Origin: Candidatus Heimdallarchaeum aukensis
GTDB lineage: Archaea; Asgardarchaeota; Heimdallarchaeia; Heimdallarchaeales; Heimdallarchaeaceae
Assembly (NCBI GenBank): GCA_021513695.1
Contig: CP084166.1
Location: 2,368,001 to 2,432,000, forward strand
Direction: 5' to 3'
DNA: 64,000 nt
In this document: positions 5,294 to 38,692 of the stretch, in pieces
Layout: each line of letters begins with the position of its first letter
Numbering within the stretch: the stretch's first letter is position 1
Position numbers and translations under genes: made by a program
The notes under the pieces: generated by a model
Databases searched by the model: none
What the model was told of the DNA's origin: nothing
What the model saw: the letters and a program-made list of their open reading frames with translations, nothing else

Positions 5294-5367
5294 TTGTAAT
5301 ACCCTAGTAATGTTCACATCATGTGCCCATGTTATATCATTTTTTTAGGTAAACCAAGAATTGGTTC

Positions 5368-5912: not shown

Positions 5913-7433
5913 ATGGCAGATTTAAGACTTAAATACGGTACATCGCTAAATAAACAAAAAATGATGGAAATAACTATTGTAAGTATTATTGCACTATTTC
6001 TCTTTGTTTTGTCATTATATGTTAAAGATGCTTTTTGTTCTTGGTTCAATATGCAGAAGGGTGCAGGTTTTTACTGGTATTATGACCCCTCTAACCCTGA
6101 AGCTGTTTGGTACATAGAAGGATACGTTGATGCCTCATATTATTATCAACCTTATTTGTATGCATTTAGATATCAGAATTGGAATCCTTACTTGGGTGGA
6201 GAAGGACCATTGAATGGTTATGCTTATGGCCCCCTTTTTATATATGGTCTTTATTTTATTTCTCTTTTTGTTTCTATTGCAAATCCTTCTCTAACGAATT
6301 TTCAAGTGGTAATTGAATCAGTAAAATGGACACATATTGTTTTTGACTCATTATCGGTTGTTATGCTTTTTTTTATTGTTATCAATTTAGAAATAATGAA
6401 GTCAAAGAAATTTTCTAAATATTTAACTGGTGTTATAGCATCTGTTGTATATATTTTCATGCCCTTTAATCTGCTATACATTGATGCTTTAAGTCTTAAT
6501 ATTCCTCAAATGACTTTCTTTGTTCTTCTTGGAACATTTTTATTTAGAAAAGAAAAATATATTTTATCTTCATTTGCCATGACTTTGGGTTGGTTATCGA
6601 AACAGATGCCACTATTTATTGTTGTTCCTTGGTTTATAATACTCTGGAAAAAAGATGAAGACTTGAAAAAAGCACTTGTAGATTTCTTATTCCCTTTCTT
6701 TATTTTCACTTTGATATTCTCAATTCCTTGGTTAATATTGTCACCGGGAGGATATTTATTTAGAATATTTGGACCTGGAAAACCATTATCTATCGTTTCT
6801 TTGTCTTCCAAATATAATGGATATACTGTCACCTTGGCACATAGTTTTCTGAAATTAGGAAGCGAAACTTTAGCAAACATATATTTGTTTCTAAATAAGT
6901 ATATGATACCTTTTTTTGTTTTTTATATACTTACGTTATTAATTTGCTATTTTAATGCTTTAGATATATTTAATGACGAAAAACAATTTTACATTTATAA
7001 CACAGTAGTAATTCTTGTGTCTCATATATTCATTTCTAGAGGAATTTACAAATATTATGATGCATTTTTTTCTCCTTTCTTCATTCTTTTTCTTGTTTTA
7101 CTACTTTGGTCTTATTTTGACTTATGTAGATTCAACAATAGAACTTTATTGTATTCTTATTTTTTCGTTTCAATAATTTCCAGTTCAATTATTTTGTACT
7201 ATATTAATTGGGTAATAATCATCAAATCTAGATTCCTTCATCCTCTCTACTTGTTATTAATTTTTATTTTCATTTCTAGCTTTTTAGAAAGTAATTTTTA
7301 CTCGAGTCTAACCAAGTTTGAAAGCTACAGAATGATAATATTAGATATCAAAAAGATTTACTCTGATATAAAAAACTCTCTTCGAATACACAAAAAGGAA
7401 AAAGATCCGAAAATAAATCCGAATTTAGAATAA
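5913..7433 (+). CDS. Polytopic integral membrane protein, possibly a GT-C-fold glycosyltransferase (DUF2029-like)
   Basis: 506 aa, aromatic-rich, at least 10 predicted TM helices, N-terminal soluble loop rich in Y/W/P. Assignment by architecture only. Confidence 0.35.
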   Translation: MADLRLKYGTSLNKQKMMEITIVSIIALFLFVLSLYVKDAFCSWFNMQKGAGFYWYYDPSNPEAVWYIEGYVDASYYYQPYLYAFRYQNWNPYLGGEGPLNGYAYGPLFIYGLYFISLFVSIANPSLTNFQVVIESVKWTHIVFDSLSVVMLFFIVINLEIMKSKKFSKYLTGVIASVVYIFMPFNLLYIDALSLNIPQMTFFVLLGTFLFRKEKYILSSFAMTLGWLSKQMPLFIVVPWFIILWKKDEDLKKALVDFLFPFFIFTLIFSIPWLILSPGGYLFRIFGPGKPLSIVSLSSKYNGYTVTLAHSFLKLGSETLANIYLFLNKYMIPFFVFYILTLLICYFNALDIFNDEKQFYIYNTVVILVSHIFISRGIYKYYDAFFSPFFILFLVLLLWSYFDLCRFNNRTLLYSYFFVSIISSSIILYYINWVIIIKSRFLHPLYLLLIFIFISSFLESNFYSSLTKFESYRMIILDIKKIYSDIKNSLRIHKKEKDPKINPNLE

Positions 7434-10347: not shown

Positions 10348-10577
10348 AAATGGAACTTATTATGTAAATTTATTAGTTTTCTCCATCTTCTTGTGAACTT
10401 TTTAAACTACTCAAAATAATTTTCTCTAAAACCGGCAAAATATTAATTTCGGGAACATTGACTTATCTCTGGATAAAGTGAGAAAAAATGCGCATTTCGG
10501 ACTTTTCAGCACAATATTTTTATACTACTTTTTTTATCAATGAATTGCATACTACACGTGTGTAGGTGTTAAAAAAA

Positions 10578-11702
10578 ATGAATAAAAAAGGAATCTTTTT
10601 AATGGCATTGTTCTTACTTTCATTCCTTAGTGTAATGCCAACTAAGGCCGTAGTGGAAGATAAGAACACTGTTACCATTACATTGGGAACAGATGTCGCT
10701 GGTTATGTTGACAAAGGTGAACTCTATGTCGAAATTGACCGCGACGTCCTTCCAGATGGAAAAATCTTCTACACTGGAGATGAGCTATGGTTACACTTCT
10801 TCTATGATGTAGCCTATACAAACTTCTTCGGTGCAGCAGCTCCAAATGGAGGTTTCCAATGTGATGCATGGTTCTATGAAGAACCAGATGAAAACGGACT
10901 ATATAATGAAACAAGATTCAGTGGTATGCTAAACGGATATCTAGACGACTACGATTTAGGTCTAACAGATTTCGATCCTTACGACGGTAATACAACCCAA
11001 GAAATAACAATTACCTTAGAGGAAGGATGGCACACCTTTACTATTGTAGCTGCTGAATACATTTCAGACAACACTCATACCGAATTCCACTGGGAATGGG
11101 TAAAAGATCAAGTAAGCTTCTACGTTACTTCTGATACAACCTTAACAGAAGCTCCTGCAGTCGAATCATCCGGTAAGAAAGTCAAATTCGAATCAATCGC
11201 TAAAAACTCTGAAAACATGACCAACGGATTTGATTGGACAGATCCATGGACTGTTCGTCCAGTAGCTGAACCAGCTGCTTATTCAGACCTAGAAATATCA
11301 ACAAAGAAACTAGTAACCAAACTAACTGCTTATTACAACACTACATGGCAAGAATTAAACTTGACTGACTACGTTTGGGATACAGGTTTTGTTGATGAGT
11401 ATTCAATGGGTTATGGTGATGTTGCATGGTTCAATGCTGCTATAAACAACAGTTTAGTACAAGCAACTGAAGGAACTATTCCTTTGAACCTTGGAGTAAA
11501 CTACGTTGTATTTGCAGTAGTTGGATTCCACGCAGCTGATTTTGCAGCACTTTATGGAATACCCTTCCCAACAGTGCAATTCTCAAGCGTAATCTACAAG
11601 ATTGATGTAGTACCAGGACTAGGACCATCATACGGTATCCTTATAAGTGTCTCAATCTTTGGTCTAGTGGCTGCTTTAGGATTAAAGCGCTTCAGAAAAT
11701 AA
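10578..11702 (+). CDS. Secreted surface protein with a signal peptide and a C-terminal TM anchor plus basic tail
   Basis: N-terminus MNKKGIFLMALFLLSFLSVMPTKA. C-terminus GLVAALGLKRFRK. Atypical C-ending codon usage (TTC/TAC/AAC/GAC). Start chosen at the ATG 12 nt inside the track ORF. Confidence 0.55.
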   Translation: MNKKGIFLMALFLLSFLSVMPTKAVVEDKNTVTITLGTDVAGYVDKGELYVEIDRDVLPDGKIFYTGDELWLHFFYDVAYTNFFGAAAPNGGFQCDAWFYEEPDENGLYNETRFSGMLNGYLDDYDLGLTDFDPYDGNTTQEITITLEEGWHTFTIVAAEYISDNTHTEFHWEWVKDQVSFYVTSDTTLTEAPAVESSGKKVKFESIAKNSENMTNGFDWTDPWTVRPVAEPAAYSDLEISTKKLVTKLTAYYNTTWQELNLTDYVWDTGFVDEYSMGYGDVAWFNAAINNSLVQATEGTIPLNLGVNYVVFAVVGFHAADFAALYGIPFPTVQFSSVIYKIDVVPGLGPSYGILISVSIFGLVAALGLKRFRK

Positions 11703-14299: not shown

Positions 14300-15067
14300 T
14301 TAACTCTTTATTCTTATTTTTATCCTCTTAGAGCACCAATTTATTATGCTTTTTGCAATAATAAACTTCTGAAATTTTTTGCCAATCTTCTCTTTCGTGA
14401 GAGTGTTTACTTTTGAGTATTTTCCTATTTTTTCTCCAAAGTCATACCCAAAAAGGATAACTTTTTTTATTTCTGAATTTACGGCAAAACAAACAGCTCT
14501 ATCACCATCTGTAAAACCTAAAAAATTTCTAAAATTTCCTAATTCTTCTGTTTGTGTTGAAAATAACACGTTTCCTGCCTTTATTAGTTTGGGTAGATAT
14601 TTCTTTGCTTGTTCAAGATTATCCCCGTGAATATGAACAATCATAGTAGAACCGAGTCTTTGGGCTTCTATTTGATCTTCTACGCAACCGTCTAAATCAG
14701 AAATAATAACTTCAGGAATCAGGTTCTGTTCTAATAAAAATGTTGTAGCCCCATCAACTGAAATAAGAACGGTGTTAGTAACATTTTTTGATTTTATTTC
14801 TTTAATTTTTTTTGCTGTTTCATTTGATAAACTATTTCCAGGGGCTATAATTATTGCTGTTTTTCTTTTTAATTCATTTACTAACTCTTCAACCCTTAAA
14901 TTAGGTTTGAATAAGTTATCAATATCCTTCACAGCATTTAAGTCGCTTTGTGGAGAAATATTTAGAAAATCACATATCGCAGGATACCAATGTTCTAGCC
15001 AAGTGGAAAGAGAAAAATCTAGTTTCTCAAGTTGAAGAAACAATGTATTTTCAGTCTTAAAAATCAT
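14300..15067 (-). CDS. DUF115 / MptE-like protein (archaeal 6-hydroxymethylpterin diphosphokinase family)
   Basis: Segments APGNSL ... ISDLDG ... HIHGDN resemble the MptE/Maf (PF01973) family. Recalled from memory, not searched. Confidence 0.45.
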   Translation of the reverse strand: MIFKTENTLFLQLEKLDFSLSTWLEHWYPAICDFLNISPQSDLNAVKDIDNLFKPNLRVEELVNELKRKTAIIIAPGNSLSNETAKKIKEIKSKNVTNTVLISVDGATTFLLEQNLIPEVIISDLDGCVEDQIEAQRLGSTMIVHIHGDNLEQAKKYLPKLIKAGNVLFSTQTEELGNFRNFLGFTDGDRAVCFAVNSEIKKVILFGYDFGEKIGKYSKVNTLTKEKIGKKFQKFIIAKSIINWCSKRIKIRIKS

Positions 15068-16832
15068 CTAAATCTTCCTTTGTTATCTTTCTTTTGCTCT
15101 CTAGCTTAAGAAGAGCAGTGTTATATCTACTAACTACATCATTGAAGTTTATAAAACCAATGACTTTCTTATCATTTTTTAAGGATACTACTGGCATCCC
15201 TTCAATATTATTGTCTTTTAACTTTGCGATGACTACTCTTAATGTATCACTTGGTTTAACGGTTATTACGTTTTCAGTCATTACTTCGTGAACATACTTT
15301 TTATTAGAAGAAAAACCTCTTGAGAAATCTGAACTCGCAATAATTCCAACAAGATTATCTTCTTCGTCAAAAACAGATATGGCTGAAACTTTGTGCAGAT
15401 ATAGTAGTGAAATTGTATTCTTAAGTAGGTCATTCTTTTTTACTTTGGGAAAAACAGTATCCATTGCTTCAGAAACTTTTATTCCTTCCAAGATGTCAGT
15501 ATTGCTTATTTTTTTCCTTAATATGACTTCTTTGCTTTGTACTTGTCCAGTATATAGACTGAAATCCATGGAAACTACAAAAGCTGCAGCATTTGATAGA
15601 ATTATTGGAATAACAAGAGAAGGAAATCCTAACATTTCTAAAACAATAAGCATAGATGCAATCGGAGTTTTTGTAGTGGCTGCATGCATTGCAGACATTC
15701 CTACTATAATAAATGCAATATAATTGACGCCAGGAAAGATCTTAGAATAAACAGCCCCCAAAACAGCTCCTGTTACTAGCGATGGACCCATGACTCCTCC
15801 AGATGCACCCATTCCAACACATGTGGAAGTAACAATAATTTTACCAAGAAAAAGAAGAAGTAGAATAGAAAAACCTATATTTTCACCTTTCTCTAAAAGA
15901 AAATTTATCGCTTGAAAACCTGTTCCTTGTAAAGATAGACCTTCTGGTAATCCTAAACTGAACAAAAAGACGATAAGAGCTGTAATTGTCATTCCAATAA
16001 AAGGGAGAATATATGACCATTTTATGTATCTATTAACTAAATTTGTAAGGGATTTATATAGTAATGAAAAACCTATTCCTGAAATTCCAGAAATAACTCC
16101 TAATAATAAGAACAAAAGAGAATTAACAATTGTAAGCTGTACTGGAGCTGTTTCAATATCTAAATAAACAGGGTGGGAGTTTAGTGCTGTCAAAATTGCC
16201 ATTGAAACTAAAAGAGAAATTGCACTTCCCAAAAGAGCAGGAAGAAATACTGTTTCATCAAGATCGTGTTTGTATGGAACTTCAGAAGCAAAAACTGTTC
16301 CACCTAAAGGAGAACGAAAAACTGCTGCAGTGCAAGCTGCTGCTCCTATTGTTATAGCATGTGTAGCATCATCTTGGTTGAATTTCATTTTTTCTCCTAA
16401 AGAATAAGCCATCGCTGCTCCTATTGTAACAGATGGTCCTTCTCTTCCTGCAGGAGCATTTACTCCCAAAGTGAGAAAACTTGCTACAAACTTTGACCAA
16501 ATAACTCGAATAGGAATTTTCTTTCCCGTGTTTTTATGTTCTAAAATATAGGAAATTCCTGCTCCTCGCACTTCATCAAACCCAAAATAAAGGAAGAGTG
16601 ATATTAATGCTCCAGTTAATGGAAAAGAAATCAAAATAGAAATTTGAGACAACCATTTTTGAGTATTAACTACAAGGCTTGCAAACAAACCCATTACAAC
16701 TCCACTTATAATACCAGTAATGATTGCAAAGGGAAACCATTTTTTGCTATATTTCCAATATTTGATAAAAACCTCTTTAAAATTCCTAAAAAATCTCTTA
16801 TTTTCTTTATCATTTATTGCTTTTTTTTTCAC
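15057..16832 (-). CDS. ClC family chloride channel/transporter with a C-terminal CBS pair
   Basis: GREGP selectivity motif (NAPAGREGPSVTIGAAMA). Several GxxxP/GG motifs, about 11 TM helices, C-terminal CBS domains. Confidence 0.8.
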   Translation of the reverse strand: MKKKAINDKENKRFFRNFKEVFIKYWKYSKKWFPFAIITGIISGVVMGLFASLVVNTQKWLSQISILISFPLTGALISLFLYFGFDEVRGAGISYILEHKNTGKKIPIRVIWSKFVASFLTLGVNAPAGREGPSVTIGAAMAYSLGEKMKFNQDDATHAITIGAAACTAAVFRSPLGGTVFASEVPYKHDLDETVFLPALLGSAISLLVSMAILTALNSHPVYLDIETAPVQLTIVNSLLFLLLGVISGISGIGFSLLYKSLTNLVNRYIKWSYILPFIGMTITALIVFLFSLGLPEGLSLQGTGFQAINFLLEKGENIGFSILLLLFLGKIIVTSTCVGMGASGGVMGPSLVTGAVLGAVYSKIFPGVNYIAFIIVGMSAMHAATTKTPIASMLIVLEMLGFPSLVIPIILSNAAAFVVSMDFSLYTGQVQSKEVILRKKISNTDILEGIKVSEAMDTVFPKVKKNDLLKNTISLLYLHKVSAISVFDEEDNLVGIIASSDFSRGFSSNKKYVHEVMTENVITVKPSDTLRVVIAKLKDNNIEGMPVVSLKNDKKVIGFINFNDVVSRYNTALLKLESKRKITKEDLDDF

Positions 16833-17031
16833 ACTTCTAACTTGAAAAGAACTCTTTTATTTTTTTCTCCATCTTATAGTTGAGAAAAATTTCTTCTTAA
16901 ATTCCTTTAGTTAGGAAAACAAATGTAAAATTGATAAACTATTATTATAAATATTTAATTATATATAACGATTAATAGTTATCTAAAATTTAATATATTT
17001 GCTTAAAATCGAGAGTTATAGGGGATTAGTG

Positions 17032-18804
17032 ATGAAATTGCGATTGCCACATGTGAATTTTAAGTTACCGAGTTATACAAAAAAATGGTTGCTATTAGAT
17101 GTATTAGGAATAATTATTGGTATTATTGGAGGGTTAGGAGCAGTATTCTTTCGTTTTATTTTAAAGTACCTCAAGATCTTCTTTTTTGATATCTTGTTAC
17201 CATTAGTTACAATAAATGTTGGTGGATTTAATTTAGGTTATATATTTCTTCCAATAATTGGGGCTTTAATTGTAGGGCCTGTTGTTATGTTTTTTGCTCC
17301 TGAAACTAAAGGACATGGTGTTCCTGAAGTGATGGAATCTGTAGCATTAAAAGGAGGGGAGATAAGAAAAAGAGTTGCTTTTCTAAAAGTGGCTGTTTCT
17401 TCTATAACTATCGGTTCTGGAGGCAGTGCGGGAAGAGAAGGACCAATTGCCCAAATAGGTGCAACACTTGGCTCATTCTTTGGAGGACTATTCAAACTTG
17501 ATCCACAACATAAAAAGCTGATGGTTGTTTGCGGTCTATCTGCTGGTATAGCTGGGACATTTAATGCTCCACTTGGCGGAGCGTTATTTGGAATGGAAGT
17601 GCTGTTGAGAGGAATAGGATTATTTAACGCAATGCCAGTAATTTTGTCTTCTGTAGTTTCTGTAGGTGTAGCTTCAGTGTTGATTCCGATAGCATTAGGT
17701 GAAGAAGTAGGACCTGCTTTTATTATAGATATAGCAACATCATGGAATCCTGCAGAACTGCCTTTATATATTGTTTTAGGAATAGTATTTGGATTATTGT
17801 CAATATTATGGGTAAAAGGATTCTACTTTATAGAGGATATTTTTGACAAACTAAAAATTTATCCTCATCTAAAACCAGCAATTGGAGCCTTTTTTACAGG
17901 ATTAATTATTGTCTTCTTCCCAACATATGGTATCGCTGGAGTTGGTTATGAAGGGATAGAACTTGCTCTTGTTGGAGAAATAACTTTGGGTTTATTAATA
18001 GCTCTAGGTTTTCTCAAAATTCTAGCAACAGGATTCTCAATTGGTTCGGGAGGAAGTGGAGGAATCTTTGCTCCTAGTTTATATATAGGCGCTATGTTTG
18101 GAACTGCAATAGGCATGGTTTTTAAATTAATTTTTCCAGGAACTGTGTCTAATTGGACAACATATTCATTAGCTGGTATGGGCGCTTTATTTGCAGGTGC
18201 AGCACAAGCTCCAATAAATGTAATAATAATGATTCCAGAGATGACCAACGATTATTTATTGATACCACCAATTGCTATTGCTTCATTCATCAGTTTTTTC
18301 ATTAATTGGATATTCATGAAAGGGACTTCAATTTACACAATAAAATTAGAAAGAAGAGGAGTTAAAATTAGAATGGGTAGTCCTTTCATTTTAGAATTAG
18401 TGAAAAACGAAGAAATAATGACAAAAGATGTGGTTACTCTCCAAGAAAAGTTTCCTGTTTCAATCCTAGAGCTATACTTTGAAGAACATCAACACCATGG
18501 ATATCCAGTGCTAAATGAAGAAAAGAAACTTGTGGGAGTTGTAACCTTGGGAGACTTGCAAAAGTTAGAAGAGGAAGAAAGAAAAAACAAAATCATTGGA
18601 GATATTTGTTCAAGAGAGCTTGTGACCGTTAAAGCAGAAGAAACAGTCTCTGAAGCTTTAAGAAAAATGAATGAGTTTGATATTGGTAGAGTAATTGTTG
18701 TAGATAGTGAAGACCCTAATAAAATAAAAGGAATAGTTACGAGAACTGATATAATGAATGCTTATCGTATTGCTTCACAAAACCCGGCACTTACAACACT
18801 TTAA
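17032..18804 (+). CDS. ClC family chloride channel/transporter with a C-terminal CBS pair (second, divergent copy)
   Basis: GSGGSAGREGPIAQIG, GGIFAPSLYIGAMFG, C-terminal CBS pair. ATG at 17032 follows an AGGGGA SD-like motif; the track start is a TTG at 16999. Confidence 0.8.
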   Translation: MKLRLPHVNFKLPSYTKKWLLLDVLGIIIGIIGGLGAVFFRFILKYLKIFFFDILLPLVTINVGGFNLGYIFLPIIGALIVGPVVMFFAPETKGHGVPEVMESVALKGGEIRKRVAFLKVAVSSITIGSGGSAGREGPIAQIGATLGSFFGGLFKLDPQHKKLMVVCGLSAGIAGTFNAPLGGALFGMEVLLRGIGLFNAMPVILSSVVSVGVASVLIPIALGEEVGPAFIIDIATSWNPAELPLYIVLGIVFGLLSILWVKGFYFIEDIFDKLKIYPHLKPAIGAFFTGLIIVFFPTYGIAGVGYEGIELALVGEITLGLLIALGFLKILATGFSIGSGGSGGIFAPSLYIGAMFGTAIGMVFKLIFPGTVSNWTTYSLAGMGALFAGAAQAPINVIIMIPEMTNDYLLIPPIAIASFISFFINWIFMKGTSIYTIKLERRGVKIRMGSPFILELVKNEEIMTKDVVTLQEKFPVSILELYFEEHQHHGYPVLNEEKKLVGVVTLGDLQKLEEEERKNKIIGDICSRELVTVKAEETVSEALRKMNEFDIGRVIVVDSEDPNKIKGIVTRTDIMNAYRIASQNPALTTL

Positions 18805-18874: not shown

Positions 18875-21037
18875 ATGCAGTATAAGAAAAAAACTTTCTA
18901 TTGTTTGTTATTTATTGGGGTTATATTTACAACTTTGTTCTTGTATCTATACCCATTCAATTCTAAAATAACTTTTGTAAGTGATTATAAAGATTATACA
19001 TATTCATCTAATATTGAGATAGTAAAACAAGATTACACAGAGGATTTTGATAGAGAAATAAGTTTATCAGATTTTCTTACTTATTCAATTGAACCTTATG
19101 TTCTTGATTTTGAAAAAGATCAATCATTCGAATTTTTTGTTATCTCAAATCGTTATAATGAAACTGAAGGAAATAAATTATTTTTACTAAAAGATGCTAG
19201 TATTATGCCTAACTGGCCAATTCAACTAGATGTGGATATTGAGGATGTAGTAGGTCAAGAGACTTATGATAACGAACAAATTGTAATAGTAAGAGCTAAA
19301 GATAAGAATAGTATCAATCAAACCTTATTTTATGGCATAAATAAAAATGGAGACGTGATCAGTTCATTTACAAAAGTAGTAGGAGAAACATTTAGTGGAG
19401 ATACTTTATTTGGTGACATTGATGAGGACGGTCTAAATGAATTTGTGATACATAGTAACTATCAGGTCTTTGTGTATGAAGATGATTTTACATTAAAAGA
19501 GAATTGGCCAAAAGAAACAAATGAGACAATCTTTTCAGAAATTGTTGTGGAAGATGTAAATTTAGATGGAAGAAAGGATATTGTAACCCTAACTGAGCAA
19601 GGACTAATCTTTGTATGGGATTGGAATGGAACATTGTTAAGTCACTTTACTAAAAGGATTGATCTTCTATATTACAAAAATGGGGAAGGATTTAGAGTCA
19701 TGCCCATAGTGACAGACAGTAATAAGGATGGAGTAGTAGAGATTTTCGCTTCATCAACCTTTGGTTATCTCTATTGTCTAGAACTATCTAAAGCAAAAAC
19801 AAGCACTTATTATCAAAAATTACCTAATGCTATTTATAGTTTAAATCAAGCTACTGCTAGCGATATAAACAAGGATGGACTAATTGATATCATACAACCT
19901 TTCTCCGATGGTTTTTATATTTTTAATTTTAATAAAAGCTTGGAAGTTAAGACAAAAGTAGAAGGGTCTTATTCTTTCACGGGAGCTCCTGTACTAGCAG
20001 ATATAAACAAAGATAATACACTGGAACTAATTTTTGTTTCCGACTATCGTTTACTAGTTTTCAATTATACTGGGGTTGAAAATCAAAATTATGAAAGATC
20101 AATCCCCTATGCTTATAGTAATGGAATTTCACCTATTGTATTTGATAGTGATAGTGATAGTGAGATTGAGATAGTCTATTTAAATAATTATGGAAAAATA
20201 AAAATATTCGAAACAAATGATTTTGGATTGCTTCCATGGTTGTTCAAGTATTCTTCTCCTCTACATTCTGTTAATAATGACTATGATAGTGATGGATTGT
20301 TAAATTATGAAGAAGAAATAGTAGGCAGCGACCCTCTAAACTCTGACAGCGATTCTGATACAGTTTATGATGGAGAAGAAGTTAATCAATATGTGATGAA
20401 TCCTATTATTGCTGATTTATCTTTAGATAGTGATGAAGACAATTTAACTAATATTGAAGAAGTAGACATTTATTTAACAAATCCGTTAAATCCAGACAGT
20501 GATTTTGACGGGTTAAAAGATGGAGAGGAAGTACTTATTTATTCAACGAACCCATTATCTATTGATTCAGACGAAGATGGGTTGCCAGATTCTTTTGAAG
20601 TAGAATATACTTTTTTAGATCCAAATGATGCTGATGATGCTCAGTTAGATTATGATGGAGATAATTTGTCAAATTTAGAAGAATACCTTTATGGAACTGA
20701 TCCAAGTAATCCTGATACTGATTCCGATACTCTTTCTGATGGAGATGAAATTTATAGATACTTTACGAATCCTATAGTTCCTGATGCTGATGCTGATTAT
20801 GATGGAGATGGCTTAACCAATGTTGAAGAAGTAGATATTTATCATACTGACCCATCTTCAGCAGATAGCGATGGTGATGGAATAAATGATGGTGAAGAAA
20901 TAGAAAAGGGGTCAGACCCTAATGATCCACAAAGTATACCTAAAACATCAAAAATTCATTTTGATACATTTTTCATGGTAATTTCACTTTTTTCTCTAAT
21001 CTTTGTAATTACTTTAGTAAAAAGGGCAAGGAATTAA
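18875..21037 (+). CDS. Integrin-like surface protein with an N-terminal signal anchor, FG-GAP/beta-propeller repeats, thrombospondin type 3-like Ca-binding repeats and a C-terminal TM anchor
   Basis: Repeated D-x-[DN]-x-D-G-x-x-[DE] units (DIDEDGLNEFVI, DVNLDGRKDIVT, DSNKDGVVEIFA, DINKDGLIDIIQ). C-terminal D-x-D-x-D-G-x-x-D-G-E-E repeats (DSDFDGLKDGEEV, DSDEDGLPDSFEV, DSDGDGINDGEEI). Ends with a TM helix + KRARN. Confidence 0.6.
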   Translation: MQYKKKTFYCLLFIGVIFTTLFLYLYPFNSKITFVSDYKDYTYSSNIEIVKQDYTEDFDREISLSDFLTYSIEPYVLDFEKDQSFEFFVISNRYNETEGNKLFLLKDASIMPNWPIQLDVDIEDVVGQETYDNEQIVIVRAKDKNSINQTLFYGINKNGDVISSFTKVVGETFSGDTLFGDIDEDGLNEFVIHSNYQVFVYEDDFTLKENWPKETNETIFSEIVVEDVNLDGRKDIVTLTEQGLIFVWDWNGTLLSHFTKRIDLLYYKNGEGFRVMPIVTDSNKDGVVEIFASSTFGYLYCLELSKAKTSTYYQKLPNAIYSLNQATASDINKDGLIDIIQPFSDGFYIFNFNKSLEVKTKVEGSYSFTGAPVLADINKDNTLELIFVSDYRLLVFNYTGVENQNYERSIPYAYSNGISPIVFDSDSDSEIEIVYLNNYGKIKIFETNDFGLLPWLFKYSSPLHSVNNDYDSDGLLNYEEEIVGSDPLNSDSDSDTVYDGEEVNQYVMNPIIADLSLDSDEDNLTNIEEVDIYLTNPLNPDSDFDGLKDGEEVLIYSTNPLSIDSDEDGLPDSFEVEYTFLDPNDADDAQLDYDGDNLSNLEEYLYGTDPSNPDTDSDTLSDGDEIYRYFTNPIVPDADADYDGDGLTNVEEVDIYHTDPSSADSDGDGINDGEEIEKGSDPNDPQSIPKTSKIHFDTFFMVISLFSLIFVITLVKRARN

Positions 21038-21047
21038 AAAAATCAAC

Positions 21048-21530
21048 TTAAAATTCCCAAATGTAAGTAACTCCTTGTCCATCATCTTCACAAACAGAAA
21101 CCTTTAAGCTTTTAATGTTTTTTTCGTTGAATTTTTTTTCTTTTATCAATAACTCTGTAAAATATCTACTTAGTTCTTCAACTGTAGTATTTTCAATAGG
21201 TAAAATTTTAACATCCTCTTTTGGGATTTCATATTCTTTATCTAATCTAGGCACTTTAATGATTACTTGTTTATCTGTTTCAATAATCTCTAGATGTTTA
21301 TTATACCTCGGTAAAATGAGGTGATGATCAAGTGAATCAACAACGGGTTGAACTATTCTCTTTATATCATAAAAATTGACCACCATATTGTCTTTAGATT
21401 GCTGTCCAACAATATTTACTTGAACAGTATAATTGTGTCCATGTAATTTTTCAAAAAAGCTTTCTCCAATAACAATATGAGAGCAAGAAAATATGAAATA
21501 CTCCCTGGATAAAAACAAATCATAGCTCAT
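21048..21530 (-). CDS. 6-pyruvoyl-tetrahydropterin synthase / QueD-like (PTPS family)
   Basis: C-x3-H-G-H-x-Y-containing segment CSHIVIGESFFEKLHGHNYTV. Size 160 aa. Confidence 0.55.
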   Translation of the reverse strand: MSYDLFLSREYFIFSCSHIVIGESFFEKLHGHNYTVQVNIVGQQSKDNMVVNFYDIKRIVQPVVDSLDHHLILPRYNKHLEIIETDKQVIIKVPRLDKEYEIPKEDVKILPIENTTVEELSRYFTELLIKEKKFNEKNIKSLKVSVCEDDGQGVTYIWEF

Positions 21531-21612: not shown

Positions 21613-22554
21613 TTATAATTCTGCAGATGATAATATTATATTTTCAAGTTCTTGGATTTCTAAGTCAATATCAACTAAAAAAACTAAAAATTCTGACATT
21701 ATTGATGCTAGTTCATTTCTCAACTCTTTTCCAAGTTTTATTAGTTCTTCAACAGAGGAAATATCATCTAAACCCCATGAAAGAACATCACATAATCTTC
21801 CAAGTTGTTCGTCAGGTATTTTCTCTTCTTCTTTTGCTTTACTGTTAGTTGAAATTTGAGAAAGAATTTTTTCTGCAGTATTAATTTCATCTTCAAAAAC
21901 AGTGGTCAATGGATTTATACTCATATCTAACAATTCACGCAAAATCATCTGGGCTTTATCCCCAAGTTCAGCAGCCTGAAAGGAAAGATCTGTTATTTCT
22001 TCTACTTGCTCCTTTTGGAGTTGCACAATTTCATTAGGTTCTGCAAAAAATTTCTGAATATATTCTCTGTTCTTTTCATTAACTAATGATATTTGTTGTC
22101 TAAAACTGGAAGATTCTTCAGACTCTGAAGAGAGGAGAAAATAAATTTCTTGCCATTTACTGTTTAACTTTTCCTTGGTTAAAAACAAGTCCTTTGCTTT
22201 TTCCAAAACATTAATTATTTTCTCTATGATAGCTTCTTTTTCTATCAAACCTTTTGTACGTGCACGAGAAACTTCCTCATTAAATTCTCTGGAAACACTT
22301 TCATTTCCTCGAAGATTCTCTATAAGAGAACTCTGATAATATGTTCTCGCGAGAGAAGCCATAAGTGAAAGAAGCGATGAGCGCAAAGAAAAAAGTGATC
22401 CTTCATCTGAACTCAAAAAAATATCTATATGCTCAAATAAAGAACCCATTTTTTTATATAGTTTACGTATTGGCCTGTAGTTTAAATTGTCGAGAAATTT
22501 ACCTAGTAAGGTCTGTCTCTCTAGAACAGTATCAGTATAATTATGCATTGTCAT
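21613..22554 (-). CDS. Acidic coiled-coil hypothetical protein
   Basis: 313 aa, E/L/K-rich heptad-like sequence. No catalytic motif. Confidence 0.4.
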   Translation of the reverse strand: MTMHNYTDTVLERQTLLGKFLDNLNYRPIRKLYKKMGSLFEHIDIFLSSDEGSLFSLRSSLLSLMASLARTYYQSSLIENLRGNESVSREFNEEVSRARTKGLIEKEAIIEKIINVLEKAKDLFLTKEKLNSKWQEIYFLLSSESEESSSFRQQISLVNEKNREYIQKFFAEPNEIVQLQKEQVEEITDLSFQAAELGDKAQMILRELLDMSINPLTTVFEDEINTAEKILSQISTNSKAKEEEKIPDEQLGRLCDVLSWGLDDISSVEELIKLGKELRNELASIMSEFLVFLVDIDLEIQELENIILSSAEL

Positions 22555-22690: not shown

Positions 22691-23236
22691 TTAGAGTAAT
22701 TTTTTTGTTTTCGCTACATACCAACCTAAAATAGTTGCTCCGTGAATAATCACATTTCTCTGTATCATCTTTTCAACTTCACTTTTTGACAATTCTAAAA
22801 CTTCAATAAACTCATTTTCGTCTAGTTTCTGATTCCCTTCTTTTTCTACGATTGCAAAGTAAAGGTGTCCCCAACTACTACTAAAAGCTACAGGATGCCA
22901 AGTTAATAAAGGTTCAATAGAAAGCACTTTATAACCCGTTTCTTCCCTTACTTCTCTTTTAGCCGAAAGAGTTGGATCTTCTTCTGGTTCTATAAGACCA
23001 GCAGGAATCTCAATACTAACGCTACTCCACGGATATCTGTATTGTTTTATCATAACTATTTTTTCGTCTTTTGTCATGCATATTGTGGCTGTGAAGTTTT
23101 TACTCTCAACAACAGAAAATTCTACTTCTTTGCCTTTTGGATTCTGCACTTTATCATTTCTTACTCTGAGATAATTGTTGGAAAAAACTTCATTTTTATT
23201 TATACATATCCAGTTGCTTATATCCATTAAAATCAC
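22691..23236 (-). CDS. NUDIX hydrolase (ADP-ribose pyrophosphatase-like)
   Basis: Nudix box GLIEPEEDPTLSAKREVREETGY (G-x5-E-x7-REVxEExGY). Confidence 0.75.
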   Translation of the reverse strand: MILMDISNWICINKNEVFSNNYLRVRNDKVQNPKGKEVEFSVVESKNFTATICMTKDEKIVMIKQYRYPWSSVSIEIPAGLIEPEEDPTLSAKREVREETGYKVLSIEPLLTWHPVAFSSSWGHLYFAIVEKEGNQKLDENEFIEVLELSKSEVEKMIQRNVIIHGATILGWYVAKTKKLL

Positions 23237-23272
23237 AATTCCTTAAAAATAAAAAGAAAAAGAAATTTAATT

Positions 23273-24490
23273 TTATTCACTTTCTTTTTTTTGGTTGTGC
23301 TCTTTAATTAGTTTTGTTAATTCTGGAATAATTTTTAGTACATCTCCAATAACTGACAAATTCGCTACTTTAAATATAGGTGCTTCGGGGTCATTGTTTA
23401 CTGCAATTATAACATCAGAGCTTTTCATTCCTACTAGGTGTTGTACTGCTCCAGAAATTCCAAAAGCTAAGTAGAGATTAGGAGAAACGGTTTTTCCTGA
23501 TTGACCAACTTGTCTAGCATGAGGTAACCAACCTATATCCACCAAAGCTCTTGATCCAGATAAAGTCGCACCCATTGCTTCAGCTAGTTCTTGAGCAATT
23601 TTTATATTTTCTTTGCTTTCTATTCCTCTACCGACGGATACAAGTTTATCTGCCTCTTCTATATTTACAACTTCATCTAAAACGTGTATCTCTTCAAGTA
23701 TTTTTGTTCTGATAGAAGAACGTTTAAGGGTCACTTCAAAAATCTCAGTCTCACCTTCTCTTGTTTGATCTTCTTTGGGTTTCTTGAACACATTAGGTCT
23801 TACAGTAGACATCTGAGGACGGGTATATGGAGATAAGATAGATGCCATGATGTTTCCACCAAAGGCAGGTCTTGTTTGAACTAATTGGTTCTCTTCATCA
23901 ATATCTAATCCTGTACAATCAGCTGTTAGACCTAATCCTAATCTCGCAGCTATTCTAGGCGCAAGATCTCTTCCATTGGGTGTTGCTCCATAAAGAACAA
24001 TTGAAGGTTTTTTTGCAGCAATTATGCTTGAGATTACTGTAGCATAACCATCAGTAGTATAAGCACCTAATAATTCATGTTCTGCTAAGATAACTTTATC
24101 TGCACCATGATGGAATAATGTAGGAATTAGTTCTTTAACTTTATATCCGGCTAAAACAACGGTTAATTCTTCATTTAATCTATCTGCAAGTTCTCTTCCT
24201 TTTCCTAATAGTTCCAAGACGACATTCTTGATATGTGGAACGTTTTCTCTTTTCTCCCATTCTCCCCATATGAAAACACCAGTGTATTGAGACAATTGTT
24301 CTTTTGAAATTGTTTTTCTTTCAATAGTTAGTGCTCCATAGGGACAAGCATTAACACATGTTCCACATAAAGTACAATTTTCTAGAACTTTAGCCTTTTT
24401 TGTGTCTGCTGGAACAATTATTGCTCCGAAAGGACAAACTTTTTCGCAAATTCCACAACCAATGCATTTTTCTATATCAACGATTAACAT
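23273..24490 (-). CDS. etfA: Electron transfer flavoprotein alpha subunit with an N-terminal 2x[4Fe-4S] ferredoxin domain (LctC-like)
   Basis: CIGCGICEKVCP and CTLCGTCVNACP clusters, followed by an ETF-alpha FAD-binding domain (…AVQHLVGMKSSDVIIAVNNDPEAPIF). Confidence 0.8.
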   Translation of the reverse strand: MLIVDIEKCIGCGICEKVCPFGAIIVPADTKKAKVLENCTLCGTCVNACPYGALTIERKTISKEQLSQYTGVFIWGEWEKRENVPHIKNVVLELLGKGRELADRLNEELTVVLAGYKVKELIPTLFHHGADKVILAEHELLGAYTTDGYATVISSIIAAKKPSIVLYGATPNGRDLAPRIAARLGLGLTADCTGLDIDEENQLVQTRPAFGGNIMASILSPYTRPQMSTVRPNVFKKPKEDQTREGETEIFEVTLKRSSIRTKILEEIHVLDEVVNIEEADKLVSVGRGIESKENIKIAQELAEAMGATLSGSRALVDIGWLPHARQVGQSGKTVSPNLYLAFGISGAVQHLVGMKSSDVIIAVNNDPEAPIFKVANLSVIGDVLKIIPELTKLIKEHNQKKESE

Positions 24491-24503
24491 TTTTCATCCT
24501 CCT

Positions 24504-25304
24504 TTAAATAAAATTATTAGCTACCAAGAATTCAAAGATCTTCTTTGCTGCAAGTTTAGGTTCCTCTCTTCCATCGATTATTTCTCCTCCACCTTTTTCT
24601 GGAGGGGCAAAAACTTTTGCGACTTGAGTAGGTGAAGCATTTAATCCTACTTTTGTGTCATCTGCTCCAATTTCATCTGCAGACACAATCTCCAAGGGCT
24701 TCTTTCTTGCTTCTAACACTTGTTTCATAGAAGGCATACGGCGAATATTAGATCCTTTACTCATAGTTACCAAAGCAGGCAACCTTGTGGAAACAATTTG
24801 GTATCCTTCTTCAGTCTCACGTTTGACAATTATTTTCTTGTTTTCTAACTTTGTGTTTACTCCATAAGTGATTTGAGGGATAGCAAGATGTTCTGCTGTT
24901 TCAGGTGGTACTTGAGCGGTGTCACCATCAATTGCTTGTTTTCCAGCAAAAATTAAATCAAAGTCAGGAACAAGTTTTTTCACACCTAAAGACAAAGCAT
25001 TTGAAGTTGCCCAAACGTCAGAACCTGCAAATTTTCTGTCAGAGAGTAAATAAGCTTTATCTGCTCCCAGTTCTAAACAACGCATAAGAGCATTTTTGGC
25101 TTGTGGTGGGCCCATGCTTATTGCTATTACTTCTATTTCTTTTTCTGGATATTCTTGTTTGAGTCTAACAGCTTCATCAAGAGCATACTCACAAAAAGGA
25201 TTGAGGATTGAAGCCACTCCTTCTCGAATTAAAGTACCTGTTTCTGGGTTAACAGCGACTTTATCAGCTTCAGGTACTTGTTTAACTAATACAACAATTT
25301 TCAT
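24504..25304 (-). CDS. etfB: Electron transfer flavoprotein beta subunit (LctB-like)
   Basis: MKIVVLVKQVPE… typical ETF-beta N-terminus. Overlaps the upstream gene by one base; same operon. Confidence 0.8.
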   Translation of the reverse strand: MKIVVLVKQVPEADKVAVNPETGTLIREGVASILNPFCEYALDEAVRLKQEYPEKEIEVIAISMGPPQAKNALMRCLELGADKAYLLSDRKFAGSDVWATSNALSLGVKKLVPDFDLIFAGKQAIDGDTAQVPPETAEHLAIPQITYGVNTKLENKKIIVKRETEEGYQIVSTRLPALVTMSKGSNIRRMPSMKQVLEARKKPLEIVSADEIGADDTKVGLNASPTQVAKVFAPPEKGGGEIIDGREEPKLAAKKIFEFLVANNFI

Positions 25305-26944
25305 TATTTTTTCACCTCTATATCAAAAATGTTTCCTGGATTAAGGATACAGTTGGGGTCAATGCTCAATTTTACATGTCGCATTTGATCTACGTTTTCT
25401 TCTCCATACATTATTATCAAGTACTCATGCTTAATTTTACCTATTCCATGCTCTGCAGAAACAGAACCCCCAAACTCTACAGCTTTCTTCGCGAATTTTT
25501 TGTAAAGAAGTTTTCCTTGCTCTAGATCTTCCATGTTCCTTGGGAGAATATTAACATGAACATGATTGTCACCTATATGTCCCCAAATTACATATTCTAA
25601 ACCTGCTTCTTCAAGTGATTCATGATAAAATTTCATCATATCAACTAAGTGTTCATCAGTAACAGACATGTCAGTTCCAAGTTTATGAATCTCAGGGTAG
25701 GTCTTCTTCCTTTCGGCAATTAAGTTATTGACTATTTCTGGTACAGCATGTCTAAAATGCTTGAATCTAGCTCTTTCTCGCTCTTCATAACCACACCAAG
25801 TGTTCTCTAATGAGGAGTTACATTGTTCAAGGAAATCACCAACTTCAGAAATAATAGTTTCTATAGTCTCCTCGTCAAAGGGTAAATCAAAAGATATTGC
25901 TGCTTCTGCAGTTTTAGATATTGTAGGCATATCGACAAATTTTGGATCTTCCTCTTGTTTATTTCTTAACAAAGTTAAAGCGTTTTTATCAAAGTATTCA
26001 ATGAATTCTGGTTTGAAAGTTGATTTTTTACGAAGCAAATCAACAAAATGTAGTGCGTCTATTTCTTTATCAAAAAATGCCACATTAGACATATGACTTT
26101 CATATTCCTTAATCCACAATTCTGCTTCTGTGATTACTCCCAAAATTCCTTCAGAGCCAATAAACAAGTCAATAAGATCCATATCTGGCTTTGCATAAAG
26201 TCCTGCAGCATTTTTTGCCTTAGGCATTTCGTAAGTTGGAATAGTTAACTTGATTTCTCCTTCTTTTGTTTTAATGATAAAATAGCCATCTTTAGCCAAA
26301 TATTTACCTCTTGGAATGTCGAGAACCTCTCCTGTTGGAATGACAACACGAATTCTTCTGACCCACTCTCTTGTAGCTCCATACCTAAAAGAACGGGCAC
26401 CAGAAGCATTAGCAGCGATAGTTCCTCCTACAGCTGCACTAGTTTCTGTTGGATCAATTGGATAGTAATAAGTGTTCAATTCTTTAAATTTCTCAACCCA
26501 ATTCTTTTCGGGAGGAATACTCTGATTTTCTTCGAACTTTTTTAATTTAACAATGTCATTTAGTTCAGATAAGGTAACATTTGGTTCAAGGCGTACAAAC
26601 CATCGTTTTTCCTCTTCATCGTACCCAATTCCTTTTACTGAATTTAACTGTTCGAAGGAAATGATAACTCCACCATAAAGAGGTACAGCTGAACCAACTA
26701 TTCCAGTTCTAGCTGCAGAAATGGTTACTGGTATTTTTTCTTCGTTAAGTTTTTTAATAATTGTAGCTACTTCTTGCTCATTTTTAGGGAAAAAAATCTT
26801 TTCCGCATGTCCTCCGCTTATTTTTGATTCGTCAAATAAATAACCAGGATGAGAAATTCTTATTTCTTCCTCTCCTTCAATGACCCTAATAGTTTCAAGG
26901 GGTACTTCTTCTACTGTTTCAGGGATAACTATATTATTAGTCAT
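25304..26944 (-). CDS. FAD-linked oxidase (GlcD/D-lactate dehydrogenase-like, LctD-like)
   Basis: PCMH-type FAD-binding N-terminus, 546 aa. First gene of the operon with etfB/etfA. Confidence 0.65.
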   Translation of the reverse strand: MTNNIVIPETVEEVPLETIRVIEGEEEIRISHPGYLFDESKISGGHAEKIFFPKNEQEVATIIKKLNEEKIPVTISAARTGIVGSAVPLYGGVIISFEQLNSVKGIGYDEEEKRWFVRLEPNVTLSELNDIVKLKKFEENQSIPPEKNWVEKFKELNTYYYPIDPTETSAAVGGTIAANASGARSFRYGATREWVRRIRVVIPTGEVLDIPRGKYLAKDGYFIIKTKEGEIKLTIPTYEMPKAKNAAGLYAKPDMDLIDLFIGSEGILGVITEAELWIKEYESHMSNVAFFDKEIDALHFVDLLRKKSTFKPEFIEYFDKNALTLLRNKQEEDPKFVDMPTISKTAEAAISFDLPFDEETIETIISEVGDFLEQCNSSLENTWCGYEERERARFKHFRHAVPEIVNNLIAERKKTYPEIHKLGTDMSVTDEHLVDMMKFYHESLEEAGLEYVIWGHIGDNHVHVNILPRNMEDLEQGKLLYKKFAKKAVEFGGSVSAEHGIGKIKHEYLIIMYGEENVDQMRHVKLSIDPNCILNPGNIFDIEVKK

Positions 26945-27050
26945 ACAGAACTCTCCTTAATAAGCTTAAGTAGGAGTGAAACATTCAGTTTAAAAAATTA
27001 ACTCATATCTACGAACAAAAAAATATAAGTTCTAATTTTAATAGACAGAT

Positions 27051-27374
27051 ATGAGCTACTATAAAATAATTACTTTAGTTCCAGAAGAAGTCATCGGGGA
27101 TTTAATGGATGAACTGAATAAAGTGGTAAAGCCCATTTATCCAAATTATGATTATGTTTTTACATATTCAAAAGTAATTAGTACTTGGAGACCACTATCA
27201 GGTTCTAACCCTTTTAAAGGAAAAATAAATCAAATAGAACATTCTTCAGAGATAAAACTAGAAATAAATGTGCATAAAGAAAATATTGATGATGTAATTA
27301 GTACGATTAAAAAAATTCATCCATATGAATGTCCTGTCATTGAGTATTTCGAAATAAGAATTCCAGGTTTCTAA
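27051..27374 (+). CDS. Small CutA1-like / PII-like fold protein (tentative)
   Basis: 107 aa, N-terminus YKIITLVPEE, HPYECP near the C-terminus, resembling the HPYEVP motif of CutA. Weak. Confidence 0.3.
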   Translation: MSYYKIITLVPEEVIGDLMDELNKVVKPIYPNYDYVFTYSKVISTWRPLSGSNPFKGKINQIEHSSEIKLEINVHKENIDDVISTIKKIHPYECPVIEYFEIRIPGF

Positions 27375-32305: not shown

Positions 32306-33463
32306 TTAAATTAAATTAAACAATTTTTTTCTTTTACGGATAATAATAACCATAGTCATTAAAAACATAATAGCCGTTAAAGAGTAATTCAGTGAGTAAT
32401 CTAAAGGAAATGTGTTTAATATGTCAGTATTTGTATCAGTTGTATTTCCACTTGGTTCCTCTCCTTCTCCCAAAATTCTTAGTTCGTGAATAGCTAGTGC
32501 AGGCATGCTTTCGTTGTTATATGCTACATCGAAATAGTTGGGCCCTTCTAATGATTGATATTAAGCTAAATTTGTGAAGTATATACTTTCTCCCAAATTA
32601 GTTTGAAAATCTCCTCCGTTAATATCTTCTGATCTTAAAGGCTTTGAAAACTCTATTTGTCTCATGTTTTGGTTATAAATAAATGTGGCTCATCCATCAA
32701 TTGTTCCTCCGACATCAATGTCACTAATAGGTTCTCCTTTAGTTTGATCAAAAACCATATCTTCGTATGATTCTGGGGTCATTACAGCAAGATCTGTTCC
32801 TCTATCAACTTCCAACATATTTGCTGTTTGACCAAACATGAATATATTCGCATCTCCTTCATCATATTTCTCCTCATAGATCTCAAAATAGATATATGTT
32901 GTGTATCCATCAGTAACAAAACGAATTTCTCCATCAAAGCGATTATCCTCTTGGATATAGTTATTTTCCCAATCAACAAAATATATAGTAACATGGTATG
33001 TTACTGCTCTATCCCAAAAATCTTCATTTGCATAACCGTCATAAGTAATATCCACCGAAGAGAGATAAACACACTCATAGACTTGATCTGAAAGCAACCA
33101 ATTAACCTTTCCTCCTATTTCTGGAGTGTGGATAATATCTCCATTATCAGTACCAAGTGAGAGACGAATAAATTTGAATGTAGAACCATCCGCAATAGAC
33201 CGATTAGGTCCTCCAGGAGCAGTTGTGTCAATCCAAGCTACAATGAAAACACCAATTGAGTTGCCATAACCTAGATCAAAATCAAAGCCATTGATATCAT
33301 TAGACTGTAATTCTTTTTGAAATTCAAAATATGAACCGTCGTTAGTCATTTTCGTGAATGCATTAACATTATTTTGCCCTCCCCTATCTCCATCGTTAAA
33401 AGGTTCTACGAAAAAAGAATCAAAGCCATGGTCTTCGACTCTATTATCTGAAGCGTTCATCAA
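32306..33463 (-). pseudogene. Inactivated surface-anchored protein gene: one reading frame interrupted by two in-frame stop codons (TGA at about 32690-32692 and TAA at about 32561-32563, complement)
   Basis: The 257 aa ORF, a 42-codon coding-like inter-stop segment and the 66 aa ORF ending in a TM anchor + RKRKK are all in the same frame. No signal peptide at the 5' end. Confidence 0.5.

Positions 33464-35554: not shown

Positions 35555-38692
<3,138 letters not shown>

Follow-up and report, generated by a model that had tools for sequence, protein, structure and literature searches.

What is the function of a compact cluster of three genes that, in the Asgard archaeon Candidatus Heimdallarchaeum aukensis, places an oxidase linked to flavin adenine dinucleotide (FAD) beside both subunits of an electron-transferring flavoprotein (Etf)? 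The cluster lies on the minus strand of the 64-kb stretch of DNA analysed here (contig CP084166.1, positions 2,368,001 to 2,432,000; called the window below and numbered from its first nucleotide), within a closed genome of 3.08 Mb. By the list of open reading frames (ORFs) it comprises, in order of transcription, the oxidase (25304-26944, 546 aa), EtfB (24504-25304, 266 aa) and EtfA with an N-terminal ferredoxin domain (23273-24490, 405 aa), which are identical to UJG40297.1, UJG40296.1 and UJG40295.1 of this species. An original prediction, made from the sequence alone, likened the trio to LctBCD, the lactate dehydrogenase/Etf complex (Ldh-EtfAB) of Acetobacterium. We judge it probable that the trio encodes a soluble D-2-hydroxyacid dehydrogenase/Etf complex that carries out flavin-based electron confurcation or bifurcation, and that this complex is an analogue of LctBCD and not its orthologue.

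The packing of the genes is as first described. The Pfam matches (FAD_binding_4, 4e-22, and FAD-oxidase_C, 6.5e-33, in the oxidase; ETF, 1.6e-39, in EtfB; ETF, 2.6e-47, ETF_alpha, 6e-35, and Fer4 families in EtfA) agree with the ORF list. Base 25304 is common to the oxidase stop and the EtfB start, a one-base overlap at which the junction reads TAATG. EtfB and EtfA are separated by 13 nt containing an AGGAGGA ribosome-binding site. With their ribosome-binding sites, the three genes appear to be translationally coupled, and they form one transcription unit.

Does the Etf belong to the bifurcating type? Mutagenesis of Ldh-EtfAB has identified the RxFxG, DGDTAQVGP and SPT motifs and an arginine of EtfA as elements each needed for confurcation, which is abolished by the loss of any one of them (PMC9232219). 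The window EtfB has R90-K-F-A-G94 (25023-25037; this and all further features of the trio are on the minus strand), an RxFxG motif of the NAD(H) site that aligns to LctB; the b-FAD motif D126-GDTAQVPP-134 (24903-24929), to be compared with DGDTAQVGP of LctB; and S224-PT (24627-24635), equivalent to the SPT anchor of LctB. EtfA has T206-RPAFGG-212 (23855-23875), in which R207 corresponds, by the alignment with CarE, to CarE R203 and LctC R205; the latter hydrogen-bonds N5 of b-FAD (PMC9232219). A small Gly after the first Asp marks EtfBs that bind b-FAD, the AMP-binding canonical ETFs having a bulky residue there (PMC12630350), and DGDTxQ is found in all 36 EtfBs linked to such a trio. The FAD-binding residues of bifurcating Etfs, which the original prediction had singled out for checking, are present, and on its motifs the window Etf would be of the bifurcating type.

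The ferredoxin domain occupies EtfA residues 1-65 (24296-24490). Its two complete CxxCxxCxxxC(P) motifs, C9-C19 and C39-C49 (CIGCGICEKVCP and CTLCGTCVNACP, at residues 9-20 and 39-50), predict the 2x[4Fe-4S] content proposed at the outset. The accompanying idea that this fusion is the signature of LctC has to be dropped: LctC has one [4Fe-4S] cluster, whereas CarE, of the caffeyl-CoA reductase-Etf complex CarCDE of A. woodii (6FAH), has two (PMC9232219). The Etf also scores higher against CarDE than against LctBC. The best solved-structure match of EtfA is CarE (6FAH_A; 1.6e-113, 383 bits, residues 6-393 including the ferredoxin domain), compared with 5.5e-81 and 276 bits for LctC; that of EtfB is CarD (2.9e-72, 246 bits), compared with 1.6e-52 and 182 bits for LctB. 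CarCDE thus has the closest Etf structures and the same two-cluster N-terminal domain, but differs in its partner, as CarC is of the acyl-CoA-dehydrogenase type and the partner here is an FAD-linked oxidase.

The Etf could instead be non-bifurcating and shuttle electrons from the oxidase to an acceptor whose gene lies elsewhere, for instance an acyl-CoA dehydrogenase or an enoyl-CoA reductase, in a manner resembling Fusobacterium nucleatum Ldh-ETF-Bcd and the Megasphaera-type D-LDH/ETF. F. nucleatum, which has a D-LDH-type flavoprotein gene beside its Etf, couples D-LDH to Bcd via a canonical ETF (PMC12630350). Bacterial lct clusters can contain an acyl-CoA dehydrogenase gene, lctG, and in a trio locus of Hodarchaeota (L005) an acyl-CoA dehydrogenase and an enoyl-CoA hydratase are encoded two to three genes upstream. 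The F. nucleatum ETF, however, is canonical and carries AMP in its beta subunit, whereas the window EtfB combines the small Gly and a full b-FAD motif, unlike the bulky residue of AMP-binding ETFs, with a motif for the NADH site. A two-cluster ferredoxin domain would have no role in a simple shuttle, yet two ferredoxin motifs are found in 24 of 26 linked EtfA ORFs and in 20 of the 21 that are full-length. No acyl-CoA dehydrogenase occurs among the annotated ORFs of the window, and no Bcd is nearby. Taken together, these points make a simple shuttle highly improbable.

What kind of dehydrogenase would such an Etf serve? The best sequence match of the oxidase in the PDB is LctD (7qh2_C; 1e-36, 130 bits, 28% identity). 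A profile of its family ranks LctD first at 164 bits, followed by mouse LDHD (mLDHD, 126), 3PM9 (119), human D2HGDH (108) and a D-LDH/glycolate-oxidase-like protein (106). When the AlphaFold2 model of the oxidase (pLDDT 85.5, pTM 0.86) was compared with solved structures by Foldseek, mLDHD, LctD, D-LDH and D2HGDH came out on top and about equal (TM ~0.8 on target), and AGPS was a clearly poorer match. Identity in structural alignments with the group of mammalian LDHD, human D2HGDH and yeast Dld2/Dld3 is 18-21%.

Two other assignments of the oxidase were rejected. Against AGPS (alkyl-DHAP synthase, an ether-lipid enzyme), only the C-terminal ~50 residues match (49 bits), and the residues for metal binding and catalysis are those of a 2-hydroxyacid dehydrogenase; the catalytic motif reads S-A-E-H-G at a position which we take to be His-His-His in AGPS. 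GlcD of E. coli GlcDEF shares the fold and the catalytic core, but the oxidase scores 208 bits against TIGR00387 (cutoff 568) and 91 bits against NF008408 (cutoff 897), and branches outside the GlcD clade. The partners GlcE and GlcF of the E. coli enzyme are absent here, no glcE or glcF being found near the oxidase among the window ORFs.

The oxidase belongs to a family of its own. A search of 1.84 billion representatives gave 893 proteins at E <= 1e-30, which probably include 2-hydroxyacid dehydrogenases from outside the family, since LctD itself reaches 1e-36. A firmer count of at least 150 members comes from the best 150 of the 893 (representatives of 50%-identity clusters, >=315 bits), with identities of 34-56%, lengths mostly of 480-555 aa and scores of 315-700 bits, compared with 130 bits for LctD. 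In a neighbour-joining tree with E. coli GlcD, LctD, mLDHD and proteobacterial D2HGDH-like proteins, the family falls outside all references, is monophyletic in 100 of 100 bootstraps and is sister to LctD in 3 of 100. The oxidase is 23-28% identical to every reference (GlcD 24%, LctD 28%). These comparisons make it a member of a separate ~540-aa family and an orthologue of neither LctD nor GlcD. The phylogeny that the original prediction called for thus removes GlcD, and the likeness to LctBCD survives in the architecture, the Etf motifs and the rank of LctD as best solved-structure sequence match, but not as orthology with LctD.

The active site was compared with that of LctD, residues 43-463 of which were rebuilt from the HMMER alignment; all ten active-site residues agreed with the published numbering, and the positions were mapped onto 115 Asgard homologues. 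The segment W454-GHIGDNHVHV-N465 (25550-25585) aligns to LctD H377/H384/Y386 and would provide two of the metal ligands (H456 and H463), two residues of the pocket (W454 and N465) and a His specific to the family (H461); among the 150 family representatives, H456, H461, H463 and N465 are invariant or nearly so. E498-H499 (25448-25453), the predicted third metal ligand and catalytic base, equal LctD E422/H423 and are conserved in 150 of 150. R398-H-A-V-P402 (25739-25753) comprises the carboxylate-binding Arg (LctD R328, mLDHD R347 and D2HGDH R386 in the alignment) and a family-specific His and Pro. In T166-E167 (26444-26449), E167 is the counterpart of LctD Glu139, a residue in contact with the a-FAD/d-FAD pair (PMC9232219), and is Glu in 149 of the 150 representatives; E39 matches LctD Glu37 by residue offset only, as LctD residues 1-42 lie outside the alignment. 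By alignment, the oxidase appears to keep the metal/His/Arg core of D-2-hydroxyacid dehydrogenases (R398, H456, H463, E498 and H499), which is invariant in the family. Mammalian LDHD (8JDE), human D2HGDH (6LPP) and yeast Dld2/Dld3 share this core and the fold; they differ in that they feed canonical, non-bifurcating ETFs tied to respiration.

Is the substrate lactate? The pocket differs from that of LctD in family-invariant changes (P402 for L332, N465 for Y386, H399 for G329, T166 for G138, S181 for G153 and H461 for N382), and of the hydrophobic lactate subsite of LctD (L80, L332, Y386) only the first residue is kept, as I82. H420-KLGT-D425 (25670-25687) is a family-specific insertion before a conserved Asp and is absent from LctD in the alignment; K421 is conserved in 144 and D425 (LctD D346) in all of the 150 representatives. 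The signature common to them reads T166, E167, S181, R398, H399, P402, E403, N406, K421, G/S/A423, T424, D425, F/W454, H456, H461, H463, N465, E498 and H499. Outside the pocket, MAFFT and phmmer alignments place an insertion without LctD counterpart at residues 213-241 (26222-26308), modelled as a beta-hairpin with strands at 221-226 and 229-234 (pLDDT ~89-96). According to the structure papers, the specificity subsite is V101/W351/S365/I407 in mouse LDHD and T390/K401/Y432/N443 in human D2HGDH, where the first residue is replaced by Pro in yeast Dld2/3. The window oxidase has P402/G423/W454/N465 at these positions, with K421 two residues before G423. At the position four residues after the Arg (R+4), P402 stands in place of L332 in LctD, W351 in mLDHD and T390 in D2HGDH. 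The pocket thus departs from the hydrophobic one in which LctD and LDHD bind lactate and is partly D2HGDH-like, though without matching the definition of D2HGDH.

A pocket of this kind leads us to consider that the same complex may act on a dicarboxylic or polar D-2-hydroxy acid, such as D-2-hydroxyglutarate or D-malate, which would be recycled or catabolised without a respiratory chain for a conventional ETF. N465, two residues after the metal His (H+2), and P402 match D2HGDH and Dld2/Dld3 (N443; T390, Pro in yeast) and not the hydrophobic residues of LctD, mLDHD and GlcD. The near-invariant K421 lies on the same strand as the position of D2HGDH K401, two residues before it, with a small residue (G/S/A423) at the aligned position. 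The motif GSVSAEHG is common to the family and to D2HGDH-like proteins, a gene of the Asp/Glu-racemase superfamily is directly upstream of the oxidase in five Asgard-like loci, and Heimdallarchaeum is predicted to have a partial tricarboxylic acid cycle (PMC8813620). However, K401 and Y432 of D2HGDH are not conserved, the aligned residues being G423 and W/F454, and the PDB profile scores favour LctD and mLDHD over D2HGDH. A dicarboxylic or polar substrate is in our view unlikely. D-lactate/pyruvate is the most likely substrate pair, at a confidence that falls somewhat short of even.

Are the three proteins expected to work together? The order oxidase-EtfB-ferredoxin-EtfA also occurs in Heimdallarchaeota (L001, L008), Hodarchaeota (L005) and Promethearchaeota (L006). 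A metagenomic scan with a segment specific to the family gave 80 loci, of which 66 had enough downstream sequence to test; EtfB, usually with EtfA, follows the oxidase immediately in 32 of these, and in 13 of the 15 closest. The similarity scores of oxidase and Etf drop together across the loci. As the same genes, order and spacing recur in other Asgard archaea and in dozens of metagenomic contigs, the arrangement is far beyond chance. In one high-GC metagenomic contig (L154), a single 962-aa protein (3565-6450) joins Fer4x2, ETF, ETF_alpha, FAD_binding_4 and FAD-oxidase_C, with EtfB upstream at 2709-3572; this fusion argues for a physical association of EtfA and the oxidase. A pooled Pfam scan of 149 neighbours of the metagenomic family loci revealed no conserved partner except Etf, the top families being URO-D and Asp_Glu_race with 5 members each. 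Members with a linked Etf (30) and members without one (23) do not differ in the active-site signature, E39 and E167 included.

The family spans Asgard and other archaea and at least some bacteria, and at least some of the metagenomic loci are bacterial, as one (L169) adjoins a sigma-54 activator. A profile scan of genome contigs was dominated by the generic pattern GS[VI]SAEHGI and returned mostly proteobacterial D2HGDH-like genes of 24-29% identity, only L008-L011 belonging to the family. The bacterial members L010, L011 and L089 have no adjoining Etf and have differing neighbours (Fe-ADH/SDR, SSF symporter). A second oxidase copy in Heimdallarchaeaceae, of ~55% identity and with the same active-site signature (8001-9632 in L003 and L004, 6001-7629 in L007), stands alone after a GH2 beta-galactosidase and near aldo-keto reductases, without Etf; in the window, no oxidase follows the GH2 beta-galactosidase at 35567-38692 (plus strand).

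Other gene associations bear on the substrate. Two separate contigs encode ~990-aa fusions of a lactate racemase domain (Lar_N) with the oxidase (P0170, at 314-3280 of L088, and P0274), which have the same pocket signature. These fusions are a clue that points to a racemisable 2-hydroxy acid. LarA homologues presumably might also act on dicarboxylic or polar D-2-hydroxy acids, in which case the fusion would say nothing for or against lactate. A homologue search with P0170 gave 6 matches, and the contexts of P0170 and of P0276 from Desulfomonile were uninformative. Further fusions link the oxidase to an RlmL-type methyltransferase (P0234) and an Rce1-like domain (P0183); these may be real or may be artefacts of assembly or gene calling. 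In some Asgard-like contigs (L142, at 3996-4811, and also L123, L128 and L135), a gene of the Asp/Glu/hydantoin-racemase superfamily upstream of the trio overlaps the oxidase start, a possible four-gene operon.

How might the complex work? A mechanism can be drawn by analogy with Ldh-EtfAB. The D-2-hydroxy acid would bind at the metal site of the oxidase (H456, H463, E498), with its carboxylate held by R398; H499 as base would take the hydroxyl proton, and a hydride would pass to the FAD of the oxidase (d-FAD). Single electrons would then move from d-FAD to a-FAD, on the mobile EtfA/EtfB shuttle domain, and on to b-FAD in EtfB, while a low-potential electron from reduced ferredoxin would reach b-FAD by way of both [4Fe-4S] clusters in the N-terminal domain of EtfA. 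Fully reduced b-FAD would reduce NAD+. The net reaction, which would be reversible, is D-2-hydroxyacid + reduced ferredoxin (2 e-) + 2 NAD+ -> 2-oxoacid + oxidised ferredoxin + 2 NADH. In Heimdallarchaeum, reduced ferredoxin might be regenerated by pyruvate:ferredoxin oxidoreductase, and a low H2 pressure might let the electrons of NADH leave as H2, a scheme that would fit syntrophic growth.

The analogy is supported by the likeness of the two systems. Both combine a metal-dependent D-2-hydroxyacid dehydrogenase of the VAO/PCMH type with EtfB and an EtfA with a ferredoxin domain (7QH2 for LctBCD), and share the R/H/H/E/H core, the Glu at the Glu139 position (E167 here), the b-FAD, NADH and SPT motifs and the EtfA Arg. 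In Anaerobutyricum, lctD-lctB-lctC likewise run in the order dehydrogenase-EtfB-EtfA. LctBCD differs in that the window dehydrogenase is ~80 aa longer and of a separate family, with P402, N465, H399, H461 and K421 in a pocket that in LctD has L332, Y386, G329 and N382; in that the window EtfA has two [4Fe-4S] motifs and LctC one; and in that the window system has an archaeal host.

In which direction would the reaction run in the cell? The same complex might mainly bifurcate in vivo, with NADH reducing a 2-oxoacid such as pyruvate and reduced ferredoxin being supplied to a membrane-bound hydrogenase (MBH), so that it would serve fermentation as a redox valve instead of admitting substrates to catabolism. 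The reaction of Ldh-EtfAB can run both ways in vitro (PMC9232219), Heimdallarchaeum encodes MBH (PMC8813620), which might use this ferredoxin, and a trio without a nearby transporter or regulator fits a housekeeping redox module. On the other hand, the reverse reaction of the A. woodii enzyme is ~10-fold slower (1.2 vs 12.3 U/mg; PMC9232219), and the lactate-fed enrichment of H. endolithica fits oxidation better. We find a mainly bifurcating role improbable.

The enrichment concerns a sister species that has the same trio, at clusters of >=90% identity. H. endolithica reached 3.55% only in lactate-fed enrichments, compared with 0.27% without substrate (PMC8813620 source data). Heimdallarchaeum is predicted to be an H2-evolving fermenter with MBH and SHY hydrogenases (PMC8813620), in keeping with the fermentative host of the original prediction. 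That study makes no mention of the trio cluster.

Several observations weigh against a confurcating complex that oxidises lactate. The oxidase family is without a characterised member, and P402, N465, H399, H461 and K421 make its pocket polar or basic. About half of the testable family loci have no adjoining Etf. The b-FAD motif of the window EtfB agrees with DGDTAQVGP at 8 of 9 positions, Gly being replaced by Pro at position 8; a variant, DGDTAQVPA, occurs in 7 other trio-linked EtfBs. Some Etfs close to bifurcating ones do not bifurcate, that of C. propionicum for example. A nearby lactate permease or racemase, which the original prediction had suggested looking for, is missing: no lactate permease, racemase or regulator (lctE, lctF, lctA) is linked to the trio in the 64-kb window, again a difference from LctBCD, and the LarA part of P0170 finds no match among all window ORFs by phmmer. 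None of these is enriched among the 149 neighbours of the family loci either. Finally, the enrichment of H. endolithica on lactate could reflect cross-feeding. With these points counted, we still infer that a confurcating D-2-hydroxyacid dehydrogenase/Etf complex is the probable product of the trio.

The flanks of the unit contain candidate signals for its expression. The upstream intergenic region (26945-27050) is common to the unit and to a divergent gene at 27051. Read on the minus strand, it has an A/T-rich TATA-like stretch, TTAATTTTTTAAA, ~45-57 nt before the oxidase ATG and a ribosome-binding site, AAGGAGAG, upstream of the oxidase; a promoter function of the region is suggested by these elements. 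After the EtfA stop codon, a T-rich tract, TTTCTTTTTCTTTTTATTTTT (23237-23272, minus strand), is likely to be the archaeal terminator of the three-gene unit. The GC content of the trio is ~0.33-0.36, compared with ~0.32 across the window, and the cluster is therefore not foreign-looking. An Rfam search of the whole window gave zero matches.

The neighbouring genes do not appear to extend the unit. A NUDIX hydrolase gene (22691-23236, minus strand) begins 36 nt downstream but was rejected as a member, because in L001 two genes, one of them on the opposite strand, separate it from the trio. Antisense ORFs at 25096-25344 and 25800-26096 (plus strand) lie inside coding genes and were taken as spurious. 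The divergent gene facing the promoter region (27051-27374, plus strand) encodes 107 aa with a weak CutA1-like match (2.8e-06) and is not kept beside the trio in other genomes. On the minus strand, the NUDIX gene is accompanied by a gene for a 313-aa protein without Pfam match (21613-22554), one of the 6-pyruvoyl-tetrahydropterin synthase (PTPS) family (21048-21530) and an MptE-like pterin kinase gene (14300-15067). All recur downstream of the trio in L001, which looks like lineage synteny and is possibly a pterin-biosynthesis neighbourhood.

Other genes of the window are observations in their own right. Two divergent genes resemble ClC-type chloride channels: that at 15057-16832 (minus strand) has Voltage_CLC and CBS domains by Pfam, and that at 16999-18804 (plus strand), assigned by translation only, encodes ~600 aa with a CBS-like C-terminus. 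The 720-aa product of 18875-21037 (plus strand), probably a surface protein, shows a hydrophobic segment at the N-terminus, a membrane anchor at the C-terminus and numerous acidic D-x-D repeats; the L001 counterpart gives faint matches to FG-GAP and TSP3 repeats. The window also encodes a pyridine-nucleotide-disulphide oxidoreductase with an N-terminal HMA domain, an architecture like that of mercuric reductase (44598-46271, minus strand), an NFACT (Rqc2/NEMF-like) homologue of ribosome quality control (50931-53027, plus strand) and a DEAD-box helicase with an MrfA-type Zn-binding (MZB) domain (2747-5293, plus strand). The ORFs at 5913-7433, 10566-11702, 56152-57576 and 32690-33463, of 257-506 aa, have no Pfam match at E <= 1e-4.

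How new is the module? Literature on Asgard archaea combined with Etf, lactate dehydrogenase, LctBCD or confurcation gave no description of it in the searchable library, nor did the literature searched yield a bifurcating Etf that has a 2-hydroxyglutarate dehydrogenase as its partner. In design and chemistry the module is familiar; its dehydrogenase comes from an uncharacterised family, and the trio has been conserved across Heimdall-, Hod- and Promethearchaeota. The mechanism of the enzyme is predictable from known systems, and the family, the substrate and the role in Asgard syntrophy are directly testable. More tentatively, and with considerable doubt, the ~540-aa oxidases could represent a previously unrecognised, widespread class of Etf-coupled confurcating dehydrogenases, in which the polar pocket (H399, P402, K421, H461, N465) may specify a substrate other than simple lactate. 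Were one member characterised, annotation would follow for hundreds of genes, and bifurcating Etfs would gain a new class of partner; should the enzyme prove to be an ordinary D-lactate enzyme, a known system would have been extended modestly to archaea.

Asgard archaea are central to syntrophy models of the origin of eukaryotes, and their energy metabolism has been inferred almost wholly from annotation. A module that couples hydroxy-acid oxidation to both NAD and ferredoxin would give the H2-producing metabolism proposed for Heimdallarchaeum a concrete component open to testing. If the more tentative proposal of a new class of dehydrogenases held, hydroxy acids would enter through this complex in Heimdall-, Hod- and Promethearchaeota and there drive syntrophic production of H2 linked to NADH and ferredoxin. 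The enrichment of Heimdallarchaeum on lactate would then have an explanation at the molecular level.

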